Shown here: positions 2,976-28,173 of the stretch, piece after piece
Layout of the letters: every line of letters starts with the position of its first letter
Position numbering within the stretch: position 1 is the stretch's first letter
Source of the DNA: Flavobacteriaceae bacterium
GTDB taxonomy: Bacteria; Bacteroidota; Bacteroidia; Flavobacteriales; Flavobacteriaceae
NCBI GenBank assembly: GCA_965224465.1
Contig: OZ245049.1
Location: forward strand, 3,690,001 to 3,722,000
Direction of reading: 5' to 3'
DNA: 32,000 nucleotides
Made by a program: the position numbers and the translations under genes
The notes under the pieces: generated by a model
Seen by the model: the letters and a program-made list of their open reading frames with translations, nothing else
What the model was told of the DNA's origin: nothing
Databases searched by the model: none

Positions 2976-3668
2976 ATGCCAGGACCAGCAGCAACAATAT
3001 CACACATGCACACATGCCCTATGTATAGTGGAACAAGCCCACATACTGGCGGCCCCATTATAGGCCCGGGAGTGCCAACAGTTTTAATAGGAGGAAAACC
3101 TGCCGCAGTAATGGGGGATCAATGTACCTGTTCGGGACCACCCGATGTAATTGTAGAAGGTGTTTCTACCGTATTAATTGGTGGGAGACCCGCAGCTACT
3201 ATGGGATCGAAAACAGGTCATGGAGGCGTAGTAAGCATTGGAGATCCTACCGTACTTATTGGTACAAGATGTAGTGCTCCTACCGCAATAATGCCCGTGA
3301 GTAAAATACCTTTTCCTAAAATATCTTTTAAAGATCGTATACTGACTTCTTTGTCGGGGAATTCATTGGCAGAAGCAGAAGCGAATCAAGCTGCTTTGAG
3401 AGAAGAAGAGGAAGGTGAGCCTCGTGTTTATAATTTACGTTGGATAAAAGAAGAAAGGCTAACCAAAAAATCTTCAGTACTAACACAAGTAACATTAAAG
3501 GCAAGTGTCGTTAATTTTGATGATGGAGAAAGTGTAACCTTTACTATTAATTTACCAACCAAAGAAAAAGGAGGGGATACAGAACAGGTAACATTAACTG
3601 GAACAGTAAGAGATAAAGAAGTACAAGTGGTTTGGGAAACTAAGGATAAACCAAAACAAACCTTATAA
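2976..3668 (+). CDS. PAAR-domain spike-tip protein with a variable C-terminal beta-rich extension (230 aa)
   Basis: The N-terminal 95 aa carry PAAR-type repeats (GGKPAAVMGD, GGRPAATMGS, VLIGG x2, PTVLIG). A Glu-rich linker (REEEEGEP) is followed by an 80-aa tail unrelated in sequence to the tail of the paralog at 23256..23969. Confidence 0.9.
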   Translation: MPGPAATISHMHTCPMYSGTSPHTGGPIIGPGVPTVLIGGKPAAVMGDQCTCSGPPDVIVEGVSTVLIGGRPAATMGSKTGHGGVVSIGDPTVLIGTRCSAPTAIMPVSKIPFPKISFKDRILTSLSGNSLAEAEANQAALREEEEGEPRVYNLRWIKEERLTKKSSVLTQVTLKASVVNFDDGESVTFTINLPTKEKGGDTEQVTLTGTVRDKEVQVVWETKDKPKQTL

Positions 3669-7485: not shown

Positions 7486-7557
7486 ACAAAAGAGAAATAG
7501 AATTCTGTTTTTAACAACTAAAAATTCTGTTAGCACAAATCTACAAGCAATGTATTC

Positions 7558-7578
7558 GTGTGGATTTTAAATCCGCGC
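7558..7578 (+). promoter_or_regulatory. Conserved junction hairpin (variant with two G.U-compatible changes)
   Basis: gtgtggattt-t-aaatccgcgc. The copies at 19571-19591 and 28143-28163 have gcgcggattt. The two C-to-T changes here keep pairing as U.G only if the plus strand is the RNA. Confidence 0.4.
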
Positions 7579-7588
7579 CAGTAACTGA

Positions 7589-7750
7589 GTGTCTGCTAGG
7601 AATGTTTTGCGGAAAGGTTTACGGAAAAAGGTGATTTATGTATCATTAGTAAATACAGATGATGTTTGTGAGTTTTTAAGTAATGGAAAAGAAGAACAAT
7701 ATTTTACAAATATTATAGCAGGGACAAAATTAAAAACAAGCCTATTTTAC
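7589..7750 (+). pseudogene. 5' fragment of a cell-wall-hydrolase effector gene (paralog of 28174..30891), cut by IS66 insertion
   Basis: GTG start. Reads SARNVLRKGLRKKVIYVSLVNTDDVCEFLSNGKEEQYFTNIIAGTKLKTSLFY, matching residues 1-54 of the 905-aa protein. Ends exactly at the IS inverted repeat (IR). Confidence 0.85.
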
Positions 7751-7778
7751 GTAAGCGTACGGTAAAGTACACCCTTGA

Positions 7779-9281
7779 TTATTTATCAACAGGCTTCCAA
7801 TTTTGAGGCAGTAACTCCGAAAGTTTATTAGCCTTATGTTCTGGTAATCTATTAAGGACATCACATAGCCACGTATGTGGGTTTACGTTATTCTTTTTGC
7901 AAGTAGCAAAAAAGCTATAAAATAGAGCTATGTTTTGTGCGGACTCATGACTGCCAGCAAAGAGATAATTTTTTCTGCCAATAGCTAAAGGTCTTATGGC
8001 ATTTTCTATATTATTGTTGTCTATTTCAAACCTGCCATCATCGATGTATAGTTTTAGGTTTTGCCATATTTTAAGAGTATAAGCAATTGCTTTTCCTATG
8101 GCACTTTTAGGCAGTACGTTTTTTCGCTCTTTTGTAAGATAAATTTCTATTCCGTCTAAAACAGGTGATGCATGTTTTTCTCTATATGCTTTAGTTTGCT
8201 CAATAGTTAATTCTTGTTCTTTTATTTTACGTTCTATCTTGTATAGCTTTTGAATTTCCAACAAAACAACATCCGCTCTTTTAGGATCATTATCCAGCGC
8301 CTTCTCAAAATACCGCCTAGCATGAGCCATGCAACCTAAAAGAGTAATTTCTCCTTTTGTTGTTAAGTTTTGGTATGCAGCATACCCATCGGACTGTAGT
8401 GTCCCATTGAAATCTTTAAAAAACTCTTCTGGAACAACTTTTCCTCTCCCTTTATTGTATTCAAAAAGAACTAAATTTTTAACAGGATTTCGATACACCC
8501 ACATATACCCTCTGTGTGTTGATTTTTTCTTGTCTTTATCTAAAACCTTTATAGGAGATTCGTCTGCTTGAATATAATTGGCATTTTCTAAAAACTGAGC
8601 CTTAAATGTATCGTATAAAGGAGCGATAAGCTCCGAACTTTTAGATACCCATCCTCCAATTGTTGATTTACTTACTTTTAAATCTTGTCGTTTAAAAATT
8701 TGAATTAATCTGTAAAGTGGTAAATGGTCTACAAATTTTGAAATAAGTATAAAGGCCAATAAACTTGCTGATGCATTTCCTTTAGGTATCGGTAAGCTTG
8801 GTAATTCTGCTATAACAACGCCTTTTTCTTCCGGAAGTGCATATTTAGGTCTTACAATTCGTCTTACAAAAACGGAAAGAGGCGTTATTTCTAAAAGTTC
8901 TGTAACTTCTTCTCCTATTTTTACAGCTCCTTCTTCTATGTGCTTAGGCTCTATAATCTCTTCTACTCGCGGAAAATGCGCAGGTATAGAAGAGCGAACA
9001 GGTTTTTTCTTTCCTTTCTTCTTTTGTTTTCTTTCGTAGATTACAATATGTTTTTTGTATGCCTCTTCTTTCTCAGCTATTATTTTTCCGAAAAGCGACA
9101 ATTGATTTGTGTCAACAGGGATAAAACGTTCGCTTTTAGACCCGAAAACCATTCTTCTAAGCTGCTCGTATTGCTGCTTAATTTCAGCTAGTTCTTGAGC
9201 TGTTTTTTCAAGTTCAATCTTTAAAATTACCAGCTCTTTTTGTATGTCTATTGTATTGTTTTCCACACTATAAATATACAA
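7779..9281 (-). CDS. tnpC: IS66-family transposase TnpC (500 aa)
   Basis: N-terminal coiled coil (LEKTAQELAEIKQQYEQLRRMVFGSKSERF) followed by a DDE-type core. The C-terminal AIGRKNYLFAGSHESAQNIALFYSFFATCKKNNVNP block is typical of IS66 transposases. Confidence 0.9.
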   Translation of the reverse strand: MYIYSVENNTIDIQKELVILKIELEKTAQELAEIKQQYEQLRRMVFGSKSERFIPVDTNQLSLFGKIIAEKEEAYKKHIVIYERKQKKKGKKKPVRSSIPAHFPRVEEIIEPKHIEEGAVKIGEEVTELLEITPLSVFVRRIVRPKYALPEEKGVVIAELPSLPIPKGNASASLLAFILISKFVDHLPLYRLIQIFKRQDLKVSKSTIGGWVSKSSELIAPLYDTFKAQFLENANYIQADESPIKVLDKDKKKSTHRGYMWVYRNPVKNLVLFEYNKGRGKVVPEEFFKDFNGTLQSDGYAAYQNLTTKGEITLLGCMAHARRYFEKALDNDPKRADVVLLEIQKLYKIERKIKEQELTIEQTKAYREKHASPVLDGIEIYLTKERKNVLPKSAIGKAIAYTLKIWQNLKLYIDDGRFEIDNNNIENAIRPLAIGRKNYLFAGSHESAQNIALFYSFFATCKKNNVNPHTWLCDVLNRLPEHKANKLSELLPQNWKPVDK

Positions 9282-9324
9282 AAAACAAGACTAAATAGCA
9301 GGTAAAACCTACAGTTTTATTGAA

Positions 9325-9678
9325 TTATTTAGCCTCTAAATAACGTTCGTTTTTCTGAGTATTTATAATACTAATTCCGTCTAAAACCATAACCATTTGG
9401 GTATAACTCAAAACTACTAATCCATCTTCAATGTCGTATTTTGGAAGCTCAAAAATACCTCGTTCCAATCGTTTATAATACAGTACAAATCCTCCAGGTC
9501 GCCAATGAAGAAGTTTTAGTTTATTTTTTTGCTTATTGATAAATGCATAAACACTATTTCTATCTCGCTCTTGTTCCATGTGCTCACTAACTAATCCACT
9601 TAATCCATTAAATCCTTTTCGCATATCAACTGCAGATAAGTGATAATAATACGTGTGTTCTGTACCTAATCCTAACAT
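9325..9678 (-). CDS. tnpB: IS66 Orf2/TnpB accessory protein (117 aa)
   Basis: Contains VDMRKGFNGLSGLV...LLHWRPGGFVLYYKRLERGIFELP, the characteristic IS66 TnpB pattern. Lies immediately upstream of tnpC on the same strand. Confidence 0.85.
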   Translation of the reverse strand: MLGLGTEHTYYYHLSAVDMRKGFNGLSGLVSEHMEQERDRNSVYAFINKQKNKLKLLHWRPGGFVLYYKRLERGIFELPKYDIEDGLVVLSYTQMVMVLDGISIINTQKNERYLEAK

Positions 9679-9756
9679 TTATATTTTCGTTTTTGTTTAG
9701 ATGCAAAAATTAGATTATTTTTAACTTCTTACAAGATGTAGTTCTCCGTACGCTTA

Positions 9757-10659
9757 CTATTTTACAAAGTAGATATTAAAGCAAATATCCGCATAAAAGT
9801 ACTTGAAATTAAAGGAGATTACGCACAAATAAAAGTAACATCTATTACTGCAACCTTAGTTAGAGATACCGATATTAATGATAACGTAAAACCATTTAAT
9901 AGCAATAAACTTTATACTATCAAAAATCTTACTACGGTTAATAAAATAAAGCATTTAATGGTCTTGCAACTAAAGATGCCACATTCAATACAAAACAAGT
10001 AAAAGCACCAAGAAATTGGAGAACAAATTTAAACAGAACTGTTACCTTTTACCCAAATGGCTATGGTAAAGTGATTTGGATAGAAAAAACATCTATTTCC
10101 AAAATAGCAGAAAAAATAAAAAAAATTAGATATAATTACCTCAATTATTCCTGACTATTTTTTAACAGATAAACAAAAATACGAAACAGTTGAAAGAGAA
10201 GCCAAAACAGGAGAAAAAACTACATTATATGTAGATGTATGTAAGGCATATATCGAAGTCCCTTTTAGAACCGATGTAGAAGAAGTAACTGTAGAAAAAG
10301 AAAAAGTAGTTGACTTACGTAAATTTAAAAAAGCAAAAGACGATAAAAAAGACCTTTGGTATAAAGTAGTATTAGATGATACAACTAGTAGCCAATGTGT
10401 AGCAGTAAAAGGCTGGGTAAAAGAAAAGGATCTTGACAAATTTAGCGCTTACGATTGGCAAAAATTTGGTTTTAAAGATCTAGACGCAGGTAATGAATAC
10501 ATATACTCTGTAAAAGACTTACGTGAGGCAACAGATAGTGCCGATTTTGTAACCGAAATTTGGGATAAAACAATAGATACAGATGGCAATAAAGTATTAG
10601 ATATACTAGAGCTTATTAGAGCGTTTAGTAAACCAGAAATAGCACAAAAACTATCTCGT
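9757..10659 (+). pseudogene. Continuation of the IS-disrupted effector gene, with at least two further frameshifts
   Basis: Collinear with 28335..29229. There is a 5-nt aataa duplication near 9941-9950 (ttaataaaataaagcattt versus ttaataaagcattt). There is a 2-nt shorter, degenerate stretch near 10105-10140. In-frame stops occur at about 9998 and at 10117. Confidence 0.8.
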
Positions 10660-12303
10660 TTGGTATGTAAGCACAAAAATGAATGGTCTTATACTATGGA
10701 CGAAATAAAACCAGAAGTAAAAGAACGCTGTGATTTTGGTATACAATTAGAAGAAGTTACAGCCGAAAAACAAAAACTAGAAACCCAAAGGGATGATAGT
10801 TTAGCCAAAATGGAAGCCAAAATAGAAAATTTAATGTGGTGGGATGAGGCAAGTAAAAAAACCTACACAGCACCCGTAAAAGAAGAAGATAAAACAAAAA
10901 CGAGTAGCACCAAAAGACCTTCTATGTTGCCAGAAGGTACAGTGGTAGAAGAAATACCACAAAAAGTTGTTGTACCTTTAGACAATAAAACAACAGCAGC
11001 TAAACCAGATGCTAAACCAACGGAAGATAGTATACCAACGACAAGTACAACCGCTGCTCCAGCACCAGAAACTAAAGTAGAAGAAAAAGAAGTGCCGCCA
11101 AAACGTATGTTTCCTAAAAGCAATATAGTACATCACTTTCATCCAATTGCTTGGGTGGAGCAGATGAGACTTGTTTTTGGGGATGAGGGTATTTGTGTCT
11201 GTGAAGCTAGAGTTAGGGCTTTTATGACAATGTTACGAATTGGAGAGGGGACTTTAGAAGATATTGGTTATGAAACTATTGTCGGTGGTTCTCACTTTAA
11301 AGATTATGGTAAAAATTTTAGCAACCATCCTGAAATTTACATAGAAAAATATGATTCGACTGCTGCTGGCGCTTATCAAATAACAAAGACGAATTGGAAT
11401 GATATTGCTTTTGTAAAATGGAGAGAAAATAAAAAAGTAATAGATTTCTTTCCAATAAGTCAAGATAAATATTGTTTTTATCTTTTGCAAAAAAAGAGAA
11501 AAGCAATAGATTTAATTAAAAAAGGATATATTAACGAGGCAATATTTAAAGTAAGAAAAGAATGGGCAAGTTTACCTGGTTCTGGTCATGGACAAAGAGA
11601 AGAAAAATTATCAATTGTAATCAATAAATATATTGAATTTTATAAGAATGAGTTAAAAGGAATTACACAATTAAAAATTCCTTATGGTGGATTTGAAAAG
11701 TTTGGGTTTGATTGTAATTGTCAAAATAATAATGAAACTGATACTACTTGTGGCAAAACACATATTGATGTCACAAATTTAATGATTTTTTATGACCAAG
11801 GAAGTGGAAATTCTAATTGTAATAAAACATGTAAATCCATAATGCTCCAAATGCAGGTTATTGCAGAAGGAGCAACTACAAAAGCCAAGATTAGACCAAA
11901 TCTTCCAGGTTCTTATTATCAAATTGCTGAAGAAAATTTAACAAGAGATGGGTTTGCTTTTGATGAACAAAAAAGTATAGAAGGAATCTCTTATTTAGAT
12001 AAAGCATTAGAACATGGAGACCCAATACTTTTTGGTGTAAATCATACATATAAATATCGTAAATTCGGAACAATCAATGATGACTCAACTGACCATTATG
12101 TGATAGTTACTGGTAGAAAATGTTTAGATGGAAAAACTATTTATACCTATTGGGATGTTGGTACTAAATATGGCGGAAAAGGAGACTATTATTTTACATT
12201 AGAGAATAATAAATTAACATCATCTTCGAGATCAAAAAAATATACAGTAACACAAATTAGAAGAAATTTAAACTTAAATGGAAAAATTATTCAATATAAT
12301 TAA
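10660..12303 (+). CDS. C-terminal toxin portion of the disrupted effector: Pro/Thr/Lys linker, FHPIAWVEQMR junction, lambda-lysozyme/GH104-like lytic domain, and an uncharacterised Cys/His C-terminal domain
   Basis: MLRIGEGT..GYETIVGG....HP......STAAGAYQI....W......FFPISQDKYCFYLL......I..G.I..AI......WASLPGSGHGQ resembles lambda-type lysozyme / lytic transglycosylase families. The frame is open from 10120, but the first start-like codon is TTG at 10660 and the next is ATG at 10696. Expression is therefore doubtful. Confidence 0.55.
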   Translation: MVCKHKNEWSYTMDEIKPEVKERCDFGIQLEEVTAEKQKLETQRDDSLAKMEAKIENLMWWDEASKKTYTAPVKEEDKTKTSSTKRPSMLPEGTVVEEIPQKVVVPLDNKTTAAKPDAKPTEDSIPTTSTTAAPAPETKVEEKEVPPKRMFPKSNIVHHFHPIAWVEQMRLVFGDEGICVCEARVRAFMTMLRIGEGTLEDIGYETIVGGSHFKDYGKNFSNHPEIYIEKYDSTAAGAYQITKTNWNDIAFVKWRENKKVIDFFPISQDKYCFYLLQKKRKAIDLIKKGYINEAIFKVRKEWASLPGSGHGQREEKLSIVINKYIEFYKNELKGITQLKIPYGGFEKFGFDCNCQNNNETDTTCGKTHIDVTNLMIFYDQGSGNSNCNKTCKSIMLQMQVIAEGATTKAKIRPNLPGSYYQIAEENLTRDGFAFDEQKSIEGISYLDKALEHGDPILFGVNHTYKYRKFGTINDDSTDHYVIVTGRKCLDGKTIYTYWDVGTKYGGKGDYYFTLENNKLTSSSRSKKYTVTQIRRNLNLNGKIIQYN

Positions 12304-13183
12304 AATTTTGATTCTAGTCGTAATGCTAGTTTCTTGTAAAAAACATATTTCAGGCTTAATAGTAGAAAATAAGCAGAATATTACATCATATAATGATTTA
12401 ATAGGTAAAACATTTTTTGCCCTACAAAATGAAGAAGGACAATTGGTTTATGATAGTTATGGTGTTAATGATATGACAGAAATGATACGTTTTAGACAAA
12501 CGAAAATCAACCATTTCAAACCAATGGATTGGCATAATTATGATATAATTAATCATGTTTCAAAAAAAACAATACAAATTAAAATAAAATATGAGAACAA
12601 ATCAGTAGATGAAGGTTTAAAATATTTTCTAAAATATGACAAAGAAAAACATCTTCTATACTCTTATCCAAGTGATAAGTGTAAAAACCCAAAAACATAT
12701 GTTGACAGTATATACCTAAACACAATTAGGTATAAAAAATATCCTAAAGTAAGTGATATTAATGTAGAAGATAATGTTATAAATAAAAAAATTAAAATTA
12801 ACATTGAATCTAAGGAAATAGAAATTTTAATTCCTTTTTTAGAAGAATATATTTATCATGAAGACAATATCGCAGGTAGACAAGGAATTTCAGAAACTTT
12901 AGAAGTAAAACTGTTAAAGGGCACTAATGGTAATTTATACTTTGTTTTTGGAGAGGGTAAATGTGGAGCCTGTCCTAATTTCTCAGCTCTTTATGATTTT
13001 AAAGGTAAAAACCTATCATATCAATATTCTATTAGACAGAATGTGAGAGGGTCAAAAATAATAATTTCAAAGGGTAATGATAGTGAAGTATTTAAGAAAT
13101 ATGGATTGTCAGAGAGTAATATAAACATTCAAATAAATAATCAAGACACACCTACTTATTTAATAAAAAATTGGTTTAATTAA
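12278..13183 (+). CDS. Lipoprotein (301 aa), candidate cognate immunity protein
   Basis: Signal peptide with lipobox: MEKLFNIIKILILVVMLVSC. Overlaps the toxin ORF end by 26 nt. No similarity to the other two lipoproteins in equivalent positions. Confidence 0.5.
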   Translation: MEKLFNIIKILILVVMLVSCKKHISGLIVENKQNITSYNDLIGKTFFALQNEEGQLVYDSYGVNDMTEMIRFRQTKINHFKPMDWHNYDIINHVSKKTIQIKIKYENKSVDEGLKYFLKYDKEKHLLYSYPSDKCKNPKTYVDSIYLNTIRYKKYPKVSDINVEDNVINKKIKINIESKEIEILIPFLEEYIYHEDNIAGRQGISETLEVKLLKGTNGNLYFVFGEGKCGACPNFSALYDFKGKNLSYQYSIRQNVRGSKIIISKGNDSEVFKKYGLSESNINIQINNQDTPTYLIKNWFN

Positions 13184-13196
13184 ATTACATAAGCGA

Positions 13197-14663
13197 ATGG
13201 GCGCACCAACCGCTGCTCCAACACCAGAAACTAAAGTAGAAGAAAAAGAAGTACCACCAAAACGTATGTTTTCTAAAAGCAATATAGTACACCGCTTTCA
13301 TCCTATTGCTTGGGTGGAGCAGATGCGGAGGGTTTTTGGAACTGGTAATTGTTCACAATGCGAAAAAGATTTCACCTATGAACAAATTAAGGCTATCTTT
13401 CCTGCTGCTGCAAAAAATGAAACTTTAGCTAAACAACTTATTGATGAACTGAATTTAGTACGTGAAAAACACAAAATAAATACTTGTCAGAAAAAAGCAC
13501 ACCTTATTACACAATTTGGTTCCGAAACTGGATTTAATACATTGATTGAGGATTTGGCTGGATATAGTGTATCTGCACTTAAAAAATTCAGTTACTTTGC
13601 AAGAAATCCAAATGAAGCAAAGTTATATCTAGGTAATACCAAAGAAATTGCAATGCGGGCATATGGTCTTCGTAGCGTGGATAAAGAAAAAGATATAGTT
13701 ACTTGTGTTGGATTGTCTAAAACAGAAAAAAAACTAAAAAAATGCAATGATTTAGGTAATAAAACTATGTTGGATGGTTATAGCTATATGGGCAGAGGTT
13801 TAATACAATTAACTGGAAGGTATAATTATGAAAATATAAATAAGAAATTTCAAAAGGCATTTCCAGATGAAGGAGATTTATTAGCAAACCCTCAACTTTT
13901 AGAACAGCCAAAGTATGCTGTAATGTCTGCTATGAGTTATTGGATAAATAAAAACTTAAACAAACTAGCAGATGAAGGAGGTTATAGTCAAGTTAATAAA
14001 ATAACTGGTATTATAAACAAAGGTTTAAGTAAAGGACATTATGCTAAACGAAGAAATTCGTTTGTAGAGGCTTTTTATGCATTTAATCTAAGTACATGTA
14101 AACTCCAAAACTCACAAACAAACTCTGATTTAAAAATAAAAGAAGGTTTAGCTTGGGCAGAAAGTATAGCAATTACAGAAACACAACTAAAAGCAAACCC
14201 TAAAACACCATATATTATAAATTATAATCAGGAATCTGGAAAGGAAGGACATTTAAGAACAGAACAAACCGAAAAAGGAATTGCTAAAATGGACTGTTCC
14301 GAATTGGTATGCAGGTATTTACAGAAAATTGAATGGAGTGAGAATGTAGAGTATATAACATCTAATGGACTTGTTGACTACGCAGCACAACATCCTGATA
14401 AACTTATAGTAAATAATGGTAATCCAAAAGTTGGAGATATATTTGCTTGGAGAGGTCATACTGGTATTATTAAAAGTTATGACTCATCAACAAAAAAGAT
14501 TGTAACTATAGAATCCATTAGAGAAAAATCGTACTCTTGGCATGAAGGCATCTTTTTTAAAGGTGTAGTTATTTGGACGTATACTAAAGATCTAAATCAT
14601 TTAAAAAGTAAAAAAGGAAAAAAAGTACATTACTACACTCCAATAAATCATTATTCAAAATAA
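13197..14663 (+). CDS. Orphan effector module: shared linker and junction motif, then a GH19-like muramidase/chitinase domain and an NlpC/P60-like cysteine peptidase domain (488 aa)
   Basis: Homology to the 905-aa effector starts at TAAPTPETKVEEKEVPPKRMF..NIVHRFHPIAWVEQMRRVFG and then diverges. GH19-like blocks: ITQFGSETGFN, GRGLIQLTGRYNYENI, AVMSAMSYWINKN. NlpC/P60-like blocks: MDCSELVCRYL ... GDIFAWRGHTGII. Has its own ATG start. Confidence 0.7.
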   Translation: MGAPTAAPTPETKVEEKEVPPKRMFSKSNIVHRFHPIAWVEQMRRVFGTGNCSQCEKDFTYEQIKAIFPAAAKNETLAKQLIDELNLVREKHKINTCQKKAHLITQFGSETGFNTLIEDLAGYSVSALKKFSYFARNPNEAKLYLGNTKEIAMRAYGLRSVDKEKDIVTCVGLSKTEKKLKKCNDLGNKTMLDGYSYMGRGLIQLTGRYNYENINKKFQKAFPDEGDLLANPQLLEQPKYAVMSAMSYWINKNLNKLADEGGYSQVNKITGIINKGLSKGHYAKRRNSFVEAFYAFNLSTCKLQNSQTNSDLKIKEGLAWAESIAITETQLKANPKTPYIINYNQESGKEGHLRTEQTEKGIAKMDCSELVCRYLQKIEWSENVEYITSNGLVDYAAQHPDKLIVNNGNPKVGDIFAWRGHTGIIKSYDSSTKKIVTIESIREKSYSWHEGIFFKGVVIWTYTKDLNHLKSKKGKKVHYYTPINHYSK

Positions 14664-14665
14664 AA

Positions 14666-15709
14666 ATGAAGCATCTATCAATTATAATTTTAACTATTTT
14701 CTGTTTATTTTCTTGTAAAAACAAAAAAAATGAAACAGTAGTAGTTATACAAAATAACCAATCAAAACATCAAAATATTATTGATTATATTAATAATAAA
14801 TCTGTTACTGAGTTTTATAAATTTGATGAAGATTATTTTATAAATAATACTCTTGAAGGTATTTGTAATGACACTACAAACACCATAGGGATATTTAGTA
14901 TTATCTATTATGACAACGAAAAAGACATTACTCAACTGTACAAAGAAAAAACACCAGTAAAACAACAGCAAAAATTATTTGACTCTTATAAAAAGGTTGC
15001 CTTTTTTATTGATAAAAAATATCTAGAAAAATTGCCGCATCATCATGAAGAAGGCATGGCAGTAGGCACAATATATGACCCTATTAATCCATATATAGCA
15101 CAAATGTTTATCTGGCAAGATGATGACTGGATATTTAATAAAGATATTAAAATTACAGATTATAAAGATTATGTTAGGTTAATAAGTTATTTGAGACCTA
15201 TAAATTTGTCAAAAAGAAAGAAAGAATATGAACTTAAAGATATTGTTGTTATTGAAGAACTAAGAGGATATTATAATAATGATAACATAGAGGATCTAAT
15301 TTGGGTGTTAGATATTAGTACTGATAATTCTATGGGAGGACGAGCAAAAAAAGAATATAGATTACAAGTGTTTTTAGGTGCCAAAATAAAAAATAAATAC
15401 AACTTTTTATTTACATCTGATTTAATAATACCTTGTAATTATTGTGAAAACTGGAAAAATGATTCTGAATATTCATATTATAATTTAAAATTTGAAAATC
15501 AAATTTTTAGTTTTTTTACAAAATCAACATTGGATAAAATAGGAACTAGCAATAAATTTACTTTTAAATATAAAGATGATAAAATGTTGCTTAACAATAT
15601 AGAAAAAGAAACCGTTCATTATAGCGAAAATGATAGAGTAGAAAAAGAGACAATAACAAACTTAAAACAAGTAAGTTTAGAATGTTTTAATGTTTATGAC
15701 GAATGGTAA
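14666..15709 (+). CDS. Lipoprotein (347 aa), candidate cognate immunity protein
   Basis: MKHLSIIILTIFCLFSCKNKKN lipobox. Starts 3 nt after the toxin stop. Confidence 0.5.
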   Translation: MKHLSIIILTIFCLFSCKNKKNETVVVIQNNQSKHQNIIDYINNKSVTEFYKFDEDYFINNTLEGICNDTTNTIGIFSIIYYDNEKDITQLYKEKTPVKQQQKLFDSYKKVAFFIDKKYLEKLPHHHEEGMAVGTIYDPINPYIAQMFIWQDDDWIFNKDIKITDYKDYVRLISYLRPINLSKRKKEYELKDIVVIEELRGYYNNDNIEDLIWVLDISTDNSMGGRAKKEYRLQVFLGAKIKNKYNFLFTSDLIIPCNYCENWKNDSEYSYYNLKFENQIFSFFTKSTLDKIGTSNKFTFKYKDDKMLLNNIEKETVHYSENDRVEKETITNLKQVSLECFNVYDEW

Positions 15710-15716
15710 ATCCAAA

Positions 15717-16027
15717 TGTAAATTTAAAAAAGCAAAAGACGATAAAAAAGACCTTTGGTATAAAGTAGTATTAGATGATACAACTAGTAGCCAATGTGTA
15801 GCAGTAAAAGGCTGGGTAAAAGAAAAGGATCTTGACAAATTTAGCGCTTACGATTGGCAAAAATTTGGTTTTAAAGATCTAGACGCAGGTAATGAATACA
15901 TATACTCTGTAAAAGACTTACGTGAGGCAACAGATAGTGCCGCTTTTGTAACCGAAATTTGGGATAAAACAATAGATACAGATGGCAATAAAGTATTAGA
16001 TATACTAGAGCTTATTAGAGCCTTTAG
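15717..16027 (+). pseudogene. Internal fragment of the hydrolase-effector N-terminal region (KFKKAKDDKKDLWYKVV...ELIRAF), truncated by an IS66 remnant
   Basis: Near-identical to 10318-10628 and 28887-29197. The listed ORF 15690..16070 is a chimera that borrows an ATG inside the preceding gene and a stop inside the IS end. Confidence 0.8.
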
Positions 16028-16065
16028 GTATCCGTCCGACGAAGCACGTATAGGAATTAAAAATA

Positions 16066-16097
16066 CATAAAAAAACCTCGATTTATTGATCGAGGTT
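16066..16097 (-). terminator. Intrinsic terminator of the remnant tnpC
   Basis: aacctcgat (16074-16082) pairs with atcgaggtt (16089-16097). On the minus strand the stem is followed by a T-run, the complement of aaaaaaa at 16067-16073. Confidence 0.55.
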
Positions 16098-16604
16098 TAA
16101 ATTTTGTGGAAATAGCTCACTTAATTTTTGAGCATTGTAATCAGGGATTATATCCAGTATTTTTTTCATCCATTTATAGGGGTTTACTTGGTGTTTTTTA
16201 CAAGTCCCAAAAAAGGAATAGAACATCGCTGCATTTTTTGCAGCATCATGGCTACCTGCAAATAAATAATTTTTACGTCCAATAGCTAATGTTCTGATAG
16301 ATCCTTCTACTAGGTTATTATCTAGTTCTAAAGTACCGTCATACAGGTAGGCTTTTAAGTAGTCCCATCGTTTTAATGTATAAGTAATTGCTTTTCCTAG
16401 TGGACTTTTCGGTAAGCTTCCTTGGGTATTATGGATCAACCATTTTATAAATGTATCCATTATTGGTTGTGCTTTATCTAGGCGATAAGCATGCCGTTGC
16501 TCAGGAGTAAATTCCTGGTTTTTACAATGTCGTTCTATCCAAATTGGAGGTAATGATAGAGCTGGTGCTACCTTTACTTCTGCCAATATTACAAGAGTAA
16601 CCAT
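16083..16604 (-). pseudogene. tnpC: Truncated IS66 transposase TnpC (C-terminal 150 aa only)
   Basis: LPKSPLGKAITYTLKRWDYLKAYLYDGTLELDNNLVEGSIRTLAIGRKNYLFAGSHDAAKNAAMFYSFFGTCKKHQVNP aligns with the C-terminus of the 500-aa TnpC at 7779..9281, at roughly half identity. No DDE core is present upstream. Confidence 0.8.
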
Positions 16605-16614
16605 CCAAACCTCA

Positions 16615-17091
16615 TTCCGTCAATTTTTATGGTATGAAGATCAATATGAATATCAGTCTTTTATAGTAGACACACGTACAGGTGCTTATGAAGAAATTCC
16701 TTTTGAAGAATTAAGAGGGGAAGTTAATATTGTAAAAGAAGAAGGTAGTATTCCTAGAACCGAAACAAGCATACGTATACCTGAATGGGTACATGAGAAA
16801 AGGAAAAAACATGAATATAGGTTTACTATTTTTCAACTAGTATTTGTATGTAGATTGCTACTAAATGAACAACATAAAAAATATTATCCACATACTTATG
16901 TAGGCAAAGATCGCTATATGGGTATAAAAATGCAATTATCACAATCTAGAACTCATAATTTTAAAAACATGAATGGATTACTATTCCCTCCGAAACCAAC
17001 CGAGTTTAAAGGGTATTATCATAAAAATGTAGAGGTAGATACTCTAGATAAACTATTAAAATGGGCTAAAGAACCCGTATTAAATATATAA
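16615..17091 (+). pseudogene. 3' remnant of a third MIX/TM-type effector paralog (C-terminal about 158 codons, no start)
   Basis: A continuous frame runs from the IS remnant to the stop. KKYYPHTYVGKDRYMGIKMQL...EVDTLDKLLKW parallels NHYFPYRLLDKPERYIGAKFKL...VFDTLANLKLDKTW at the C-terminus of 25207..27333. It is followed by a WYMDKNRPLP-family gene, as in the intact loci. Confidence 0.55.
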
Positions 17092-17095
17092 GTCT

Positions 17096-17791
17096 ATGGC
17101 AAAAATTAAAAAGCGTTTTGGTAAATGGGGAGGTTATTTGCCACATTGTATTGATGGACGACCTACAATAGATATAAAAAAAGAAGAAATGGATGGAGAA
17201 TATTATATTAAAGCTAATGATGAGTTTTTTATAATGAATAATGATTTATTTGGTAATATATATCTATATATAGGGTTAGCCCTTTATTTCTTTATGTTAT
17301 TAACAATAGCAATAAGACTTTCTGCAGATAAAGATGTTGGTTTTATTTTTTTATTTTTTTTATTTTCTTTTGGAACATTATCTATCATATATAATTATAC
17401 AGCTCCAGTAAAAAAGATTATTTTAGATAGACTCAATGGGATCGTTACTTTTCCCAACTTTTTATGGGGCAAACCTATTTGCATGCCTTTTAAAGATATG
17501 TTGGTAGCATGGTCAGTAAAAAATTCAGGAATCAACCCTTCAGGACCTTCGCTTTCTGCTTTTCATCCCAACGGTTTTTTTAGCACCGATATTATGGGGG
17601 CAGATGTGTTGGAAGATTGGTATTTTATAGTATGGTATATGGATAAAAACCGTCCTTTACCTCCGGGTACTGCTTTTGATGAATATCGTGAGAAAGATTA
17701 TCTGCGAAGAAAATCTGAAGGCTTTCCAGAAGGGTTATATCCTTGTAGTATTCATATTCCAGAATACAAGCCTTCAAAAAAAAGAAAGTAA
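17096..17791 (+). CDS. 2-TM WYMDKNRPLP-family membrane protein (231 aa), candidate orphan immunity
   Basis: Helices IYLYIGLALYFFMLLTIAIRL and VGFIFLFFLFSFGTLSIIY, followed by LDRLNGIVTFPNFLWGKPICMPFKDM and WYFIVWYMDKNRPLPPGTAFDEYREKDYLRRKSEGFPEGLY. Confidence 0.6.
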   Translation: MAKIKKRFGKWGGYLPHCIDGRPTIDIKKEEMDGEYYIKANDEFFIMNNDLFGNIYLYIGLALYFFMLLTIAIRLSADKDVGFIFLFFLFSFGTLSIIYNYTAPVKKIILDRLNGIVTFPNFLWGKPICMPFKDMLVAWSVKNSGINPSGPSLSAFHPNGFFSTDIMGADVLEDWYFIVWYMDKNRPLPPGTAFDEYREKDYLRRKSEGFPEGLYPCSIHIPEYKPSKKRK

Positions 17792-17858
17792 AAAACAAAG
17801 AATTGTAACTCTTATTAATTAGAAAATAATATGATAACTATTAAGAATTGTTAGTGTC

Positions 17859-18761
17859 TTTAATAAACGGGATGTTGACGCCAGTGTTGCTTGGAAGTTG
17901 GCAGGCGTTGCTTTTACAGTAAGTACTGCGGCAGGTATTTGGGGAGGAACTATTTTTTTATTATCAGGGCCTGTAGGTTGGATTGCCTTAGGAATTGGTT
18001 TAATAGGAGTGGTTTCAGCAAATATTTTTATAGACACAGACTTGGAATTCTATTTTAAACACTTTTTATTATCCGATCATAAAAAATTACCTATTGGTAA
18101 TAACAGTCCTATGGCATACAACCGTCTTGTCTATAAAAGTATTGAGACTTTAGTAGAGAGTGAGGATGAAGACATTAAAAATAGCCTAATGTATCCTGAG
18201 GATGCTATTGCTAGTTTACACGATCTTACGGTATGTACCAGCATTAATTACTATGTAGAAAACATGAAAATGAAATTTGCAGGCAGACGTGGTAGAAGTA
18301 CGGGGTATTATGTAAGTAGTTTTGGTATTACTATGAATTTTAATCATTTTTTATACGATGTAAATCAATTAGAAGCAAAAGGTATGATAGTGCGTCATAC
18401 CTGGGTTAATAGTATTGGAAGTAATGCCGAAGAATTTAATTTAATATTAAAAGATGCCAAAATAATAAGCATGAAAAATGGACAACAACAACTTTTAGTA
18501 ATTGTAGCAATACCTTACGAAAAAAGAAAATTAATAAAAGACGATAAAGATTTAGAAATGGTACTAGCCATACGTGTAAGAATTAATAAAGAGAAAAACC
18601 ATTACTTCCCTTACAGACTACTAGACAAACCTGAACGCTATATTGGTGCTAAATTTAAGTTATATAAAAACATATACACTAATTCAGGGGAAAATAACAC
18701 AGATAATCAAAATTTAGTTTTTGATACCTTAGCGAACTTAAAACTTGATAAAACATGGTAG
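17859..18761 (+). pseudogene. Orphan C-terminal toxin module (TM helices plus beta-rich domain) of the cassette-B membrane effector; no N-terminal loading region and no ATG
   Basis: Homology to 26431-27333 begins at FNKRDVDAS. Only 4 aa differences occur over the last 287 residues. The frame is open only from 17838 and the first start-like codon is TTG at 17898. Confidence 0.75.
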
Positions 18762-19543
18762 ATGCGACTTTTAATTACAAACGCCCTATAACCCATACCC
18801 AATACAAACATGGAGATAAAGAAACCAAAAAAGGAGGATTTAGCAGAATGCTGACTATGCGTATAACAGATGACATGCATGTTATGAAAAAAAGTGATGT
18901 AGGTACTAAAGGGGGCTTTCCTTTTGCTACAGATGTTTTTTTAAAATGCCCTGTTGTTCCTAAGATAATGCCTTTATGGTTGGGTAGCGTATTTTTATTT
19001 TTATTTTTATTTTGTATTTATGTATATCTTACACCAAGTGACAAAGACAATGGCGATTATATATTATTTTATTTAATAACTTTTCTTTCTTTTCTAGGAT
19101 TTTTGTTTTTTGCAACCTATTATTTTACGATGCCAACAAAAGAGCTTATTTTTAATAGAGCGGACGGTTTGGTTACTTTTCCTGGGTTTATGTGGTGTAA
19201 AAACATAACAATGCCTATACATAAAATGATGTTTTCTATGTCATCGCCTAGTACGCAAGGAGGAGGCGCTTATATGTTGCAAATTGTACGACCAGACAGG
19301 ACGTATTCTTTGTATTTATGTACAAGGGGCTATAGTTGTTATGAAGATTTATCATCTTATTTATGGTATATGGATAAGAACAGACCATTACCTACGGGGG
19401 AAGGTTTTGATCCGTGTCGTTTACAAGATTATGAACGTAGAAAATCTGAGGGTTTCCCTAAGCCATTATTTCCTTGTAGTTTTGAAACTCCAGAAGCTAC
19501 GCTTGAACAACAGGCAGAACGTGAGCGTATTGGCGGTTGGTAA
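18755..19543 (+). CDS. 2-TM WYMDKNRPLP-family membrane protein (262 aa), candidate immunity for the orphan toxin tail
   Basis: A 7-nt ATGGTAG overlap with the toxin stop, identical to the arrangement at 27327. 241/262 residues are identical to 27327..28115. Confidence 0.65.
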   Translation: MVDATFNYKRPITHTQYKHGDKETKKGGFSRMLTMRITDDMHVMKKSDVGTKGGFPFATDVFLKCPVVPKIMPLWLGSVFLFLFLFCIYVYLTPSDKDNGDYILFYLITFLSFLGFLFFATYYFTMPTKELIFNRADGLVTFPGFMWCKNITMPIHKMMFSMSSPSTQGGGAYMLQIVRPDRTYSLYLCTRGYSCYEDLSSYLWYMDKNRPLPTGEGFDPCRLQDYERRKSEGFPKPLFPCSFETPEATLEQQAERERIGGW

Positions 19544-19570
19544 AAGTTGATAGCGCAAAGCAATGCATTC

Positions 19571-19591
19571 GCGCGGATTTTAAATCCGCGC
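19571..19591 (+). promoter_or_regulatory. Conserved GC-rich junction hairpin
   Basis: gcgcggattt-t-aaatccgcgc, preceded by the 8-bp palindrome aatgcatt. The stem is GC-rich in an otherwise AT-rich context. Found in the same position after the immunity gene as at 28143. Confidence 0.4.
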
Positions 19592-19601
19592 CAGTAACTG
19601 A

Positions 19602-19901
19602 GTGTCTGCTAGGAATGTTTTGCGGAAAGGTTTACGGAAAAAGGTGATTTATACATTAAGAGAAAATAGTGAAGAAGAAGATTTAATACCAAAAGTTTTA
19701 GACTACTACCTAACGGACCTTAATCGAAACAAAATAGATAAAACAAAAATAGGTGAGAAAGTTTTTTTGAATATTAAAACCAAAAAATTAATTGGCGAAT
19801 TGCTATCTATTTCTTTGAATGATAAAAAGGCTGATTTTAAATATAAAAATGAAAGACGACCAAATGATACTATTAACCTGTCTCGAATTTTTTGGAAATA
19901 A
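19602..19901 (+). CDS. Hypothetical 99-aa protein that shares only the 17-codon leader with the hydrolase effector
   Basis: GTG start. MSARNVLRKGLRKKVIY is identical to 28174 and then unrelated. The remainder (KIDKTKIGEKVFLNIKTKKLIGELLSISL) has the alternating pattern of a small beta-sandwich. It may be a truncated or frameshifted gene. Confidence 0.3.
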   Translation: MSARNVLRKGLRKKVIYTLRENSEEEDLIPKVLDYYLTDLNRNKIDKTKIGEKVFLNIKTKKLIGELLSISLNDKKADFKYKNERRPNDTINLSRIFWK

Positions 19902-20283: not shown

Positions 20284-20670
20284 ATGTCTTTTAAAGCAAA
20301 ATTAAAAGTAGGTGGACAAGAGTACAATGTATTGTCTTGTTCTTATGAATTACATCAAGAAACTGATGCAACTGGAAGACCATCTTCTATCACTAGAGGT
20401 GGAAAAATTAGATTAACGGTTGAGTCTACAGCAGACACAAGTTTGTCTGATTGGATGTTTAATAACTTTGAGCGTAGAGACGGTTCTATTGTTTTCTTAA
20501 AAAGAGATACCGAAGCTACTGCAAAGGAATTAAAGTTTTCTGAAGGTTATATGGTGAAATATCTAGAGAATTTTGATTCTACAGGTAAAAATCCAATGTC
20601 AGAGTCATTTATCATTTCAGCAAAATCTGTTGCAATGGGGAATGGTGAACATGTAAATGATTGGGTGTAA
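20284..20670 (+). CDS. hcp: Hcp/TssD-like T6SS tube protein (128 aa)
   Basis: MSFKAKLKVGGQEYNVLSCSYELHQETDATGRPSSITRGGKIRLTVESTADTSLSDWMF matches my recollection of Bacteroidetes TssD (MxF.A.L...G.E..VL.C.Y.L....D..GRPSS...GGKI...VEST.DT.). Confidence 0.9.
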   Translation: MSFKAKLKVGGQEYNVLSCSYELHQETDATGRPSSITRGGKIRLTVESTADTSLSDWMFNNFERRDGSIVFLKRDTEATAKELKFSEGYMVKYLENFDSTGKNPMSESFIISAKSVAMGNGEHVNDWV

Positions 20671-20833
20671 TACCAATTACAATCCAAAATGACCGATATA
20701 AATAGTTTATTTTACGTACTAGCGTTGTTAAAAAATAGAACGATAGCTAAGGCTATCCTTAGATTTTCCGCCTAGATAGAACATAAAATAATTCTATTTC
20801 TAAACCGTCTATTGGAAATGCATTTGGTATAAT
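20671..20833. repeat. Single-copy form of the hcp intergenic element (about 163 bp), with imperfect terminal inverted repeats
   Basis: Left end is taccaattacaatccaaaatgaccg. The reverse complement of the right end is taccaaatgcatttccaatagacgg. TA(A) is present on both flanks. Confidence 0.55.
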
Positions 20834-20943: not shown

Positions 20944-21339
20944 ATGTCGTTTTTATCACAATTAACAATAGCCGATGATACCATGAATGTATTGCGATGT
21001 TCTTTTAATTTTGAACAAGGTGCAGATGCTGCTGGTAAACCATCACAAAGACCAAGTGGAGGGAAACTTATAATTTTAATAGAATCTACTAGTAAAACAG
21101 ATTTTTTAGAATGGATGATCTCTCCCAATATGACCAAAAACGGAGAGGTTGTTTTTTATAAAAGAGATAATATGTCTAGTTTAAAAACCATTACTTTTAA
21201 AAATGCCTATTGTTTGAGCTATCAAGAAGATTTTGATGCAGAAGGAAACCAACCTTTAAAAACACGGATTGTTGTGTCTGCAAAAGAAATTAAAGTAAAG
21301 AATACTACCTTTTCCAATAACTGGTTTGATAGAGAATAA
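20944..21339 (+). CDS. hcp: Hcp/TssD-like T6SS tube protein, second paralog (131 aa)
   Basis: About 95% identical to 503..898 and in the same context. Confidence 0.85.
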   Translation: MSFLSQLTIADDTMNVLRCSFNFEQGADAAGKPSQRPSGGKLIILIESTSKTDFLEWMISPNMTKNGEVVFYKRDNMSSLKTITFKNAYCLSYQEDFDAEGNQPLKTRIVVSAKEIKVKNTTFSNNWFDRE

Positions 21340-21424: not shown

Positions 21425-23239
21425 ATGGCGCTACAAAGCAACACAACTATAATTATTAAGAGACAAGAATTTTCAAGTTTTCAAAGCCTTAACTTACATC
21501 AGGAAATTGATGCATCCCATTTGTTAACACTTACGTTTAGAATGGACACACTTGAAGATCTAGAAGAAGAACTTGCAACCAACAGTAAGGAGTTTTTGGG
21601 GGAAACAATTTCCTTGCAAACGATTCCTGCAAATGGTTTTGAAGACCGTTATGGCGAATTGACGTTTAAAGGTATTATTACCGAAATAAAAATCATAAAA
21701 GGGCATGAGGTAAGTGATGGTGATAAAGTAGTTATAGTGGCAAAAAGCCCCGATTTTTTAACAAATGATGGTCCGCATTTTGCGTCTTACAACGATGTTT
21801 CCCTCTCAGAAATTATTGATAGTTCGTTTGAAGGCTATGATACTTCAAAATTAGAAGTAGACATACGCCCTCAAAACAACCCTAGTTTGCATTATTCGGT
21901 ACAGCATAACGAAAGTGCTTTTACGTATGTAAGTAGACTTGCAGCACAATACGGAGAGTGGTTCTATTACGATGGAGCGAAATTAGTGTTTGGAATGCCT
22001 GGTACCGAAGACTTAGAACTCACCTATGGATTTGATTTAGTAGAGTATCAGATACGTTTGATACCTCAATCCAACAATTACAAAATATTTGCAAATGATT
22101 ATTTAACCGATGAGGTACAAGAAAAATCAACAAGCGAAACCAATGCCGGTTTAAGAGGTTTTGGAGGCTTTGTTTCTGAAAAATCAAATGCCATCTACAG
22201 AAAAGAAACAAAAATTTGGCACAATTTATACAGCAATACAGAAGTGCAACAGCGTTTAGATACAGCGGTGGAATTGCAGAAAAAAGCGATTGATGTAAAA
22301 CAAGTAAAAGTACAGGGTGTTTGTGATAATCCAGGAGTAAAAATTGGGAGCGTAGTTGTAATAGAAGGCAATAGATACAGAATTATAGAGGTTACACATA
22401 GCAATAATGAAATTGGCGATTATACAAATAAATTTGAAGGAATTACCGCAGATATAAACGCATATCCATACACCAACATAAACGCATTTCCAAAAAGCGA
22501 AACACAGGTAGCTACCGTAAAAGAAAATGCAGATCCCGATGGATTGGGGCGCATAAGAGTGCAATTTCCATGGCAAGTGGAGTATAGCGAGTTAACCCCA
22601 TGGGTGCGCATTGTAACACCACATGGAGGAGCAAATAAAGGATTCCATTTTATACCAGAAATTGACGAAGAGGTATTGGTGGGCTTTGAAGGGGGGAATG
22701 CAGAACATCCTTATATATTGGGTGTTTTATATACGGGAAATGCCAAACCCGAAGCGTTTAAAACCGACACCAACGATGTTAAAATTATAAGAACCCGCAG
22801 CGGACACACCATTGAACTAAATGATAAAGATGGTGAAGAAAAAATAAATATCTACGATAACGAAGGAAGTATCATCACTTTTGATACCCAAGCAAAATCC
22901 TTGTATATACAAGCTACGGAGAATATTGAATTCCAAGCAAAGAATATTAAATTAAAAGCGAGCGAGAATATAGAACTAAACGCCGATCAAGAAATTAAAA
23001 TAGCAGCAACGGGTAACGCATTATTAGCATCAGAGGCAGTTATTAACATACAAGCAGAAAGTGATGTTAACGTAAGTGCGAGTTCGAATATAACCATAGA
23101 AGCCAGTAGTAAAGCGAATTTTAAAGGACAAAGTATTATTGTAGAAGGGCAAACATCAGCTGAATTTAATAGTGCCCAAACCAAAATTACGGGTAGTGGA
23201 ATGATTGATGTTTCAGGAGGAATGATAAAAATAAATTAA
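21425..23239 (+). CDS. vgrG: VgrG/TssI T6SS spike protein (604 aa)
   Basis: Same length as 1145..2959, and collinear with it at a constant offset of 20280. Substitutions are scattered over roughly the first 420 residues. The last about 170 codons are identical at the nucleotide level. Confidence 0.92.
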   Translation: MALQSNTTIIIKRQEFSSFQSLNLHQEIDASHLLTLTFRMDTLEDLEEELATNSKEFLGETISLQTIPANGFEDRYGELTFKGIITEIKIIKGHEVSDGDKVVIVAKSPDFLTNDGPHFASYNDVSLSEIIDSSFEGYDTSKLEVDIRPQNNPSLHYSVQHNESAFTYVSRLAAQYGEWFYYDGAKLVFGMPGTEDLELTYGFDLVEYQIRLIPQSNNYKIFANDYLTDEVQEKSTSETNAGLRGFGGFVSEKSNAIYRKETKIWHNLYSNTEVQQRLDTAVELQKKAIDVKQVKVQGVCDNPGVKIGSVVVIEGNRYRIIEVTHSNNEIGDYTNKFEGITADINAYPYTNINAFPKSETQVATVKENADPDGLGRIRVQFPWQVEYSELTPWVRIVTPHGGANKGFHFIPEIDEEVLVGFEGGNAEHPYILGVLYTGNAKPEAFKTDTNDVKIIRTRSGHTIELNDKDGEEKINIYDNEGSIITFDTQAKSLYIQATENIEFQAKNIKLKASENIELNADQEIKIAATGNALLASEAVINIQAESDVNVSASSNITIEASSKANFKGQSIIVEGQTSAEFNSAQTKITGSGMIDVSGGMIKIN

Positions 23240-28115: not shown

Positions 28116-28142
28116 AAGTTGATAGCGCAAAGCAATGCATTC

Positions 28143-28163: not shown

Positions 28164-28173
28164 CAGTAACTGA

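Follow-up and report, generated by a model that had tools for sequence, protein, structure and literature searches.

Orphan toxin-tail cassettes behind polymorphic peptidoglycan-hydrolase effector genes in a Flavobacteriaceae type VI secretion locus: probable products of tail displacement

We analyzed a 32,000-nt stretch of contig OZ245049.1 from a Flavobacteriaceae bacterium (positions 3,690,001 to 3,722,000), which contains an array of orphan toxin gene pieces behind a disrupted effector gene. The full stretch is called the window, and all coordinates without a prefix refer to it. The window has a GC content of about 32% and carries two nearly identical cassettes of a type VI secretion system (T6SS) of subtype iii (T6SSiii). 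In cassettes 1 and 2, respectively, these comprise genes for Hcp/TssD (503-898 and 20944-21339; Pfam and the open reading frame (ORF) listing), VgrG (1145-2959 and 21425-23239), and PAAR (2976-3668 and 23256-23969), and in both of them a VasX_N-type effector gene and its immunity gene lie further along. The genes of interest encode a predicted polymorphic family of peptidoglycan-hydrolase effectors of the Flavobacteriaceae T6SSiii. We consider it probable, at roughly 80%, that the orphans of this family are cassettes displaced from main effector genes. Five window ORFs were identical to the database proteins P0008, P0015, P0018, P0059, and P0090 of the same genome.

The gene taken as the intact reference (28174-30891, plus strand) closes the second cassette and encodes a short-form effector of 905 aa (Pfam Peptidase_M23, 6e-19; PDB hits; AlphaFold model). 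It has the conserved N-region, with a first box (VCKHKNEW) at 29230, a junction motif at 29701-29724, and a tail combining a weak lambda-lysozyme-like match with an M23 peptidase. The AlphaFold2 model of the effector had a mean pLDDT of 73, and a Foldseek search of the N-region fold against the PDB gave no match at E ≤ 0.001. Directly downstream on the plus strand lies a lipoprotein gene (30921-31847, 308 aa, lipobox LFSC), which, judged by its sequence and by its movement with the tail between genera, encodes the putative immunity protein for the M23 tail.

A second effector gene (7589-12303) is inactivated by the insertion of an IS66-family insertion sequence (IS) and by two frameshifts. Its 5′ end (7545-7750, plus strand), consisting of a 44-nt leader and codons 1-54 from a GTG start at 7589, is 96% identical to 28130-28335. 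The inserted element, IS66#1 (7751-9756, minus strand; tnpC 7779-9281, tnpB 9325-9678), is 2006 bp long and matches the Pfam families DDE_Tnp_IS66 (1e-93) and TnpB_IS66 (4e-29). It has the features of the IS66 family, i.e. TnpB and a TnpC with a DDE domain, terminal inverted repeats beginning with GTA (GTAAGCGTACGG), and an 8-bp target duplication (TATTTTAC); the effector gene had been described as IS-disrupted in an earlier note on this DNA, and the inverted repeats and target duplication bear this out. The remainder of the pseudogene (9757-12303, plus strand) includes a frameshift pair, the junction motif (HFHPIAWV at 11134-11157), and the tail, and shows 94% continuous homology to 28327-29856. 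Besides the IS, its lesions are a gain of 5 nt at 9940-9944 and a loss of 2 nt in an A-tract at 10116/7. In self-BLASTN the homology with the intact gene was unbroken from 9757 to 11277 (94%), and the frame is open from 10123 to 12303, with 10660 merely being its first TTG; the segment 10660-12303 is therefore the C-terminus of the disrupted gene itself. The tail resembles lambda lysozyme (PDB 1AM7, 5e-16) and a C39-like peptidase (9JDD, 5e-15). It is followed on the plus strand by a lipoprotein gene (12278-13183, 301 aa, lipobox LVSC), a putative immunity gene for the lysozyme/C39 tail according to sequence, position, and family pattern. We also noted that the A-tract (10100-10117) varies in length, with A8 in the window pseudogene and A10 at about 11520-11540 of L005 (ENA ERZ25073217), a contig from a near-identical strain (96-99% nucleotide identity over most shared segments). 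The same tract is the site where a frameshift splits protein P0012 from P0002. The length difference could reflect slipped-strand variation or a sequencing error.

Behind the pseudogene and its lipoprotein gene follows a complete orphan module with its own ATG (13197-14663, plus strand; self-BLASTN, PDB, Pfam). It opens with a 133-bp homology stub (13207-13339) that enters the 905-aa gene at codon ~481, matching 29615-29747 at 87% (E 6e-41) and 11048-11180 at 91% in self-BLASTN. Its predicted tail is a GH19-type muramidase combined with a CHAP domain. The best structural evidence was a match to a GH19-type endolysin (PDB 9MS7, 2e-16), and the Pfam scores for CHAP (24.6 bits) and GH19 (22.2 bits) were both slightly below the cut-offs. 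The module has a degenerate junction motif (HRFHPIAWV, 13293-13316), in which Arg replaces the otherwise invariant first His of HFHPIAW. The same His was Tyr in several orphan or contig-edge copies (loci L019, L020, L031, L032, and L036) and was kept in 14 of 14 full-length genes. Such substitutions may hint that the stub is under relaxed constraint, although there are too few cases for statistical significance. A lipoprotein gene (14666-15709, plus strand, 347 aa, lipobox LFSC) follows and, from its sequence and position, is the putative immunity gene for this tail.

Next comes a 310-bp internal fragment of the N-region (15718-16027, plus strand), which covers codons 238-341 of the 905-aa gene, with 100% identity to 28886-29195 over its full length (self-BLASTN, E 2e-160). 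It abuts the remnant of a second IS66-family element, IS66#2, of which a truncated 3′ end is left (16028-16538, minus strand). The remaining 511 bp hold the C-terminus of tnpC (Pfam hits) and are 99% identical to L005 17594-18104, where the inverted-repeat pair of the element is visible. Position 16028 is the first base of its terminal inverted repeat (GTATCCGTCCGAC); since the fragment ends exactly there, its right edge was made by the IS and is neither an entry nor an exit point of recombination. The fragment is the 5′ piece of a long-stub orphan, which IS66-family activity cut, removing whatever came after. In L005, three tandem partial IS66#2 termini (199, 259, and 199 bp; 16937-17594) precede the complete element, representing either an assembly artefact or nested insertions.

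A further orphan begins behind the lipoprotein gene of the intact effector, and the window ends before its tail (31934-32000, plus strand). This piece is 100% identical to 29201-29267 (self-BLASTN, E 2e-28; codon ~343 of the 905-aa gene) and to 10634-10700. Homology enters (EIAQKLSRLVCKHKNEW) 27 nt before VCKHKNEW, and the frame is closed by a stop 19 codons upstream of this box. Projected onto the intact gene, the insertion point of IS66#2 falls at 29195|29196, only 5 nt from 29201, the position at which homology of the window-end orphan begins. An IS origin of the 31934 boundary was considered and rejected, as the 86-nt spacer is unlike either IS end (best local score 27).

These results modify the picture given in the earlier note, which had listed three modules behind the disrupted gene. 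The complete orphan with its ATG and lipoprotein gene is present, as is the internal fragment; the supposed displaced tail at 10660-13183 belongs to the pseudogene and consists of its C-terminus and its lipoprotein gene. The array behind the disrupted gene therefore comprises one complete orphan and one fragment. The three distinct entry points into 28174-30891 are real (codons ~481, 238, and 343), with self-BLASTN matches far beyond chance. Their reading as a mark of recombination fails for the right edge of the fragment, which was set by IS66#2 at 16028.

Members of the family follow a common plan, with a conserved N-terminal part (putatively serving delivery), a disordered Pro/Thr/Lys-rich linker, a junction with the consensus ...R.FP....HFHPIA(W/F)VEQM(K/R), an exchangeable tail, and a lipoprotein gene. 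Tails span ~200-480 residues and carry one or two cell-wall hydrolase domains, among which lambda-type lysozyme, GH19 muramidase, and M23, C39-like, and CHAP peptidases were found. In an alignment of 27 proteins, sequences were shared up to HFHPIA(W/F)VEQM(K/R) and unrelated beyond, and the window's genome alone contributed at least eight tail types. In the DNA, homology ended about 20-130 nt past the last base of the motif. Two boxes are common to the family, SKLVCKHKNEWSY and (W/H/Y)HFHPIA(F/W)V(E)(Q/H)M(K/R). By direct reading of the sequences, the catalytic residues are kept in all three window tails (the E of RIGEG, the Cys/His of CHAP and C39, and the HxxxD/HxH of M23); by their Pfam and PDB matches, the tails are peptidoglycan hydrolases.

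Hcp, VgrG, PAAR, and VasX_N effector genes flank the array region, and in six other loci the full-length effector gene starts no more than 10 nt behind the PAAR gene. Delivery of the hydrolase effectors as T6SS cargo is deduced from this gene context. The description of a peptidoglycan hydrolase linked to a T6SS cassette, made from the sequence of the window beforehand, agrees with the presence of Hcp, VgrG, and PAAR genes in the window and with the lysozyme, GH19, M23, C39, and CHAP matches.

When the N-terminal 480 residues served as query in a word-indexed search, only 12 proteins were returned, all from the window's genome and either full-length, frameshifted, or of orphan length. Nine proteins of this genome (P0003-P0011) begin at internal start codons within the conserved region, which marks them as truncated, orphan, or frameshifted products rather than complete effectors. 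An exhaustive search added 41 relatives in other genomes, which were 26-41% identical except for the near-identical P0019 and P0002. The closest named relatives are Flavobacteriaceae (Aquimarina sp. RZ0, a Flavobacteriaceae metagenome-assembled genome, and Olleya). Pfam analysis of eight relatives showed SH3 in an N-terminal extension and tails of the papain/C39-like, M23, and GH19 + CHAP types. In relatives of 950-1300 aa, the counterpart of window residues 14-345 lies at about 330-660, behind an M23-like/SH3 extension.

Each of the three window tails is paired with an ORF starting with a lipoprotein-type signal (12278-13183, LVSC; 14666-15709, LFSC; 30921-31847, LFSC), and throughout the family an ORF with such a signal was found within 200 nt after 50 of 53 modules. 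Of the 14 pairs of related lipoproteins, 13 also had related tails (odds ratio 160, p = 8e-14), and tails that are ~30-50% identical usually have unrelated lipoprotein partners. This co-variation is the pattern expected of cognate pairs and fits putative immunity, with the lipoproteins acting as putative periplasmic antidotes.

To place the window orphans in a family context, copies of the junction motif were counted in a set consisting of the window, four genome loci, L005, and 42 metagenome loci (i.e. the window and 47 loci). The census comprised 14 full-length and 41 orphan-type motif copies. Nine full-length genes had 3 kb or more of sequence downstream; seven of them carried at least one orphan, and three more full-length genes showed one no more than 2.5 kb away. 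Tandem orphans followed the main gene in L004, L005, L007, L012, L020, L022, L025, and L038, and L019, L031, and L032 were orphan-only arrays. Orphan arrays are the rule in this family. In the 40 true orphans (a set that leaves out the frameshifted pseudogene of the window), stubs ranged from 6 to 185 codons, none being longer. Eight orphans, including the one at the window end, begin 9-58 codons upstream of box 1, and six of these eight fall within 9-29 codons.

Evidence for exchange came from cassettes that are shared between loci. In Olleya sediminilitoris (L004), genes for VgrG, PAAR, a 989-aa effector, and a lipoprotein are followed by three orphan-plus-lipoprotein units and a motif-only scrap. 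The M23 tail and lipoprotein gene of the window (29700-31848) matched one of these orphans (L004 10435-12574) at 84.6% nucleotide identity over 2149 bp. The match runs from the first base of the motif to the stop codon of the lipoprotein gene; the VgrG genes are only 67.5% identical. The M23 cassette was also found as an orphan in metagenome contig L012, and its lipoprotein showed 78% (Olleya) and 72% (L012) protein identity. The cassette shared by the window and Olleya shows that toxin/lipoprotein pairs move between genera as units, with the motif at one end and the stop codon of the putative immunity gene at the other. A seemingly conserved VCKHK entry point in Olleya proved to be a frameshift within a longer orphan.

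Exchange was also evident between near-identical strains. In L005, the PAAR gene precedes the gene for the 1264-aa effector P0016 (GH19 + CHAP tail); behind the latter come a lipoprotein gene, one orphan, another lipoprotein gene, and IS66#2. The N-terminal part of P0016 is represented in the window's genome by P0012, which continues across the A-run frameshift into a different tail (P0002), and the P0016 tail, which in L005 is part of a full-length gene, occurs in the window's genome as the orphan-length ORF P0017 (99%). Both the M23 cassette and the P0016/P0017 tail occupy the expressed position in one place and an orphan position elsewhere. Moreover, the same tail was found in a full-length and a truncated gene of the window's genome for the pairs P0015/P0007 (98%) and P0014/P0005 (97%).

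The reference gene may itself be displaced at its 5′ end. It is without the ~320-aa N-terminal region of the canonical PAAR-adjacent members. Compared with the PAAR-effector locus of L005, both window cassettes break at PAAR codon ~116 and effector codon ~336 (regions compared: window 28130-28240, 7545-7655, and 19558-19652; L005 9502-11185). Between these breakpoints the window has a different PAAR C-terminus, a VasX-like effector, an immunity gene, and 22 novel codons. The short form resembles the outcome of the same kind of displacement acting one level higher, on the PAAR gene.

Taken as displacement, the events at such loci would run as follows. First, a new tail and its antidote would enter as a cassette, through recombination for which the conserved part or the junction provides the anchor. 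Second, the far end of the incoming DNA would join illegitimately slightly further downstream. Third, the old tail and antidote would be pushed behind the new pair, retaining 6-185 codons of the conserved region as a stub. Each event would require one illegitimate joint, as in the displacement model for Rhs proteins. The cassette that begins at 15718-16027, on this view an older one with a longer stub, was cut by the second IS66-family element. Short BLASTN matches at the DNA level between distant members centre on the two boxes, which makes these boxes likely crossover anchors. The orphans probably keep immunity against relatives still firing those tails. They probably also serve as a reservoir from which the main gene picks up another tail by recombination through the stub (133 bp and longer), and such capture would account for the duplicated tails within the genome. 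The earlier note had proposed serial replacement of tails by homologous recombination. Exchange as such is documented by the M23 cassette in Olleya and L012 and by P0016/P0017 (99%), but homologous recombination alone cannot give stubs of variable length; at the window locus itself, we infer serial replacement from these comparisons.

Several observations weigh against this explanation. The 905-aa gene is without the N-terminal extension, and its loading into the T6SS is not assured. The test of co-variation between tails and lipoproteins counts redundant metagenome contigs (duplicates L002/L010 and L043/L044), and the putative immunity lipoproteins match no Pfam or NCBIfam family. The order of replacement at this exact locus is deduced. 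A full-length gene with the tail of the 13197 module was not found in the databases, where the best match was 73% identical over 68% of the query, and P0003-P0017 are known as proteins without genomic positions. Finally, the orphan frames are intact and the 13197 module has its own ATG, which leaves independent expression as a slender possibility (see below).

Among the other explanations, an unlikely one assigns a function to the stubs. The two boxes, VCKHKNEWSY and HFHPIA(W/F)VEQMK, would form a structural clasp or a processing site that defines a module from box 1 to the tail, and long-stub orphans would be functional half-genes in a split, mix-and-match system. The half-genes could then be expressed and combine with separately encoded N-terminal loading parts, including the PAAR-adjacent M23-like/SH3 region. 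In the AlphaFold model, both boxes are confident beta-strands flanking a disordered loop of ~70 residues, and a clasp would explain why, in several lineages, a total of eight orphans start 9-58 codons before box 1.

Quite unlikely is a decay of tandem paralogues, in which whole genes were duplicated and lost their 5′ parts by IS-mediated or spontaneous deletion, with no tail being displaced. Two IS66-family elements do lie in the array, one copy is demonstrably cut (16027|16028), and the region between the cassettes is full of duplicated pieces (e.g. 17849-19668, which equals 26421-28240). The stubs also share 87-100% identity with the main genes, in line with a recent duplication within the genome. 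However, only a single orphan boundary in the window abuts an IS. Orphan starts lie 8-86 nt after the stop codon of the preceding lipoprotein gene, and these left boundaries are without an IS scar; packing is equally tight in the IS-free arrays of other genera (Olleya L004; L019, L031, and L032). Tails within an array are unrelated to each other yet highly similar to cassettes of other genera, which points to acquisition. Furthermore, 40 of 40 stubs do not exceed 185 codons, whereas random 5′ deletion of N-regions of 500-850 codons should leave many longer ones. Together with the joints described below, tight packing and variable but bounded stubs thus argue against a simple 5′ erosion of tandem paralogues.

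Very unlikely, in our view, is an independent role of the orphans, with 13197-14663 expressed as a free-standing hydrolase (for remodelling of the own wall, for another export route, or as separate T6SS cargo) and its lipoprotein being a working antidote. The 488-codon frame has stayed intact at 32% GC, where random frames close fast, the catalytic Cys/His of CHAP and the GH19 core are present, and the ATG lies 14 nt past the previous stop codon. No plus-strand terminator-like site was detected in 9757-16027, so that read-through is possible. Against this role, the module is without a signal peptide or a T6SS-loading region, and the exchange of the first junction His for Arg here and for Tyr in some orphans, never seen in full-length genes, suggests relaxed constraint. 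Many orphans elsewhere have stubs of 6-30 codons and no obvious start. Promoter scans performed no better than chance, with 64 sigma-70-type hits found and 65 expected, and the Bacteroidota-type -33/-7 pattern had no plus-strand match in the array; the promoter and terminator scans are uninformative on expression. A site-specific recombination system was rejected, since no shared sequence, inverted repeat, or recombinase gene was found at the joints; the tight packing and the variable but bounded stubs also argue against it.

The displacement of toxin tails has parallels in several known systems. Acquired interbacterial defence islands of Bacteroidales carry only immunity genes, in many cases together with a recombinase, at a distance from the effector gene. 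They resemble the window arrays in belonging to the same phylum and in holding orphan immunity genes (putative in the window) against T6SS effectors. By contrast, the orphans described here retain the toxin tail, lie immediately behind the effector, and have no recombinase. The window shows an organization of the Rhs/CdiA type, namely a conserved N-region and a variable tail separated by a junction, and downstream orphans with a stub (13197-14663, 15718-16027, and 31934 onward). As in Rhs loci, there is a conserved body, a short junction, a variable toxic tail, and a (here putative) immunity gene directly downstream; displaced tails keep a piece of the conserved region, and Rhs orphans can re-fuse to the main gene by recombination. 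Nevertheless, the scanned members had no Rhs/YD Pfam match and no PxxxxDPxGL motif. The toxins also differ from Rhs in their predicted action on the periplasmic cell wall, their putative lipoprotein antidotes, and their Bacteroidota T6SSiii host, and no self-cleavage is known at the HFHPIA(W/F)VEQM(K/R) junction. Like CdiA-CT/CdiI, the family has tandem orphan pairs of toxin and putative immunity genes behind the main gene, each opening with a conserved fragment that ends in a demarcation motif. Unlike CdiA, it is without two-partner secretion, T6SS delivery being assumed from gene context; no TPS-domain or FHA-repeat Pfam match was seen in the scanned members, and the junction differs from VENN.

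C-terminal displacement was proposed for Rhs (Jackson 2009; Koskiniemi 2014), as cited in PMC5361080, and PMC3482391 provides a further precedent for the principle of displacement and orphan modules. In the T6SS of Vibrio cholerae, acquired modules push older ones towards the 3′ end, and homology-facilitated illegitimate recombination was invoked (Kirchberger 2017, PMC5361080). The Vibrio arrays are likewise T6SS-linked, and their retained immunity genes were proposed to guard against kin (PMC5361080). They mostly hold bare immunity genes, whereas whole tails, intact frames, and homology stubs are kept here, as in Rhs and CdiA. The T6SS1 paar island of Pantoea agglomerans carries a PAAR-linked polymorphic effector followed by orphan toxin-immunity modules, which were proposed to be swappable and protective (PMC9796082); unlike the window locus, its effector body is Rhs-based, its toxins are mostly cytoplasmic, and its host system is a proteobacterial T6SSi.

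The principle is already established for Rhs, CdiA, and the Vibrio T6SS, and is here extended to a Flavobacteriaceae T6SSiii family of cell-wall-degrading effectors. C-terminal displacement, well documented for proteobacterial loci, would thereby reach the little-studied T6SSiii of marine Flavobacteriaceae; we found no description in the literature of such displacement in this system or of the junction motif. The combination of HFHPIA(W/F)VEQM(K/R) and VCKHKNEW provides a search handle for putative periplasm-acting toxin/lipoprotein-immunity pairs in genomes and metagenomes.

The array runs on past the IS66#2 remnant with orphans of a second, VasX-like effector family, all on the plus strand. 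These features include (i) a C-terminal piece of ~160 codons cut by the IS remnant, with an open frame to 17091 (16539-17091; ORF listing), whose gene of origin was not identified; (ii) a gene for a 231-aa paralogue of the immunity proteins of VasX-type effectors (17096-17791), recognized by the DNA similarity of 17612-17764 to other immunity genes; and (iii) a VasX-like orphan (17849-19543), which holds the last 287 codons of the 708-aa effector and a copy of the 262-aa immunity gene (18755-19543) and is 96% identical to 26421-28115. They are followed by a third copy of the hydrolase effector leader with its first ~17 codons (19558-19668, plus strand; self-BLASTN). The ORF at 19602-19901 (99 codons) is chimeric, with the effector start joined to a fragment resembling the C-terminal extension of the Hcp-domain protein P0091 of the same genome (85%). 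Given this chimeric structure, a native origin of the first 22 codons of the short form in this ORF is doubtful; its breakpoint lies ~14 nt off the start of homology to the long form and does not coincide with it.

Two further observations concern the secretion cassettes. The VasX-like effector of cassette 2 is encoded by two ORFs (23981-25183, 400 aa, and 25207-27333, 708 aa), as opposed to a single 950-aa gene in cassette 1; this may reflect either a disruption of the gene or a genuine two-part effector. A repeat unit of ~110-175 bp was found upstream of the Hcp genes (1-285, 961-996, and 20605-20778). The same unit is scattered in both orientations over the otherwise unrelated part of L005 (2045-9261), where the copies are 83-100% identical, and may represent a small dispersed intergenic repeat or a miniature inverted-repeat transposable element (MITE).

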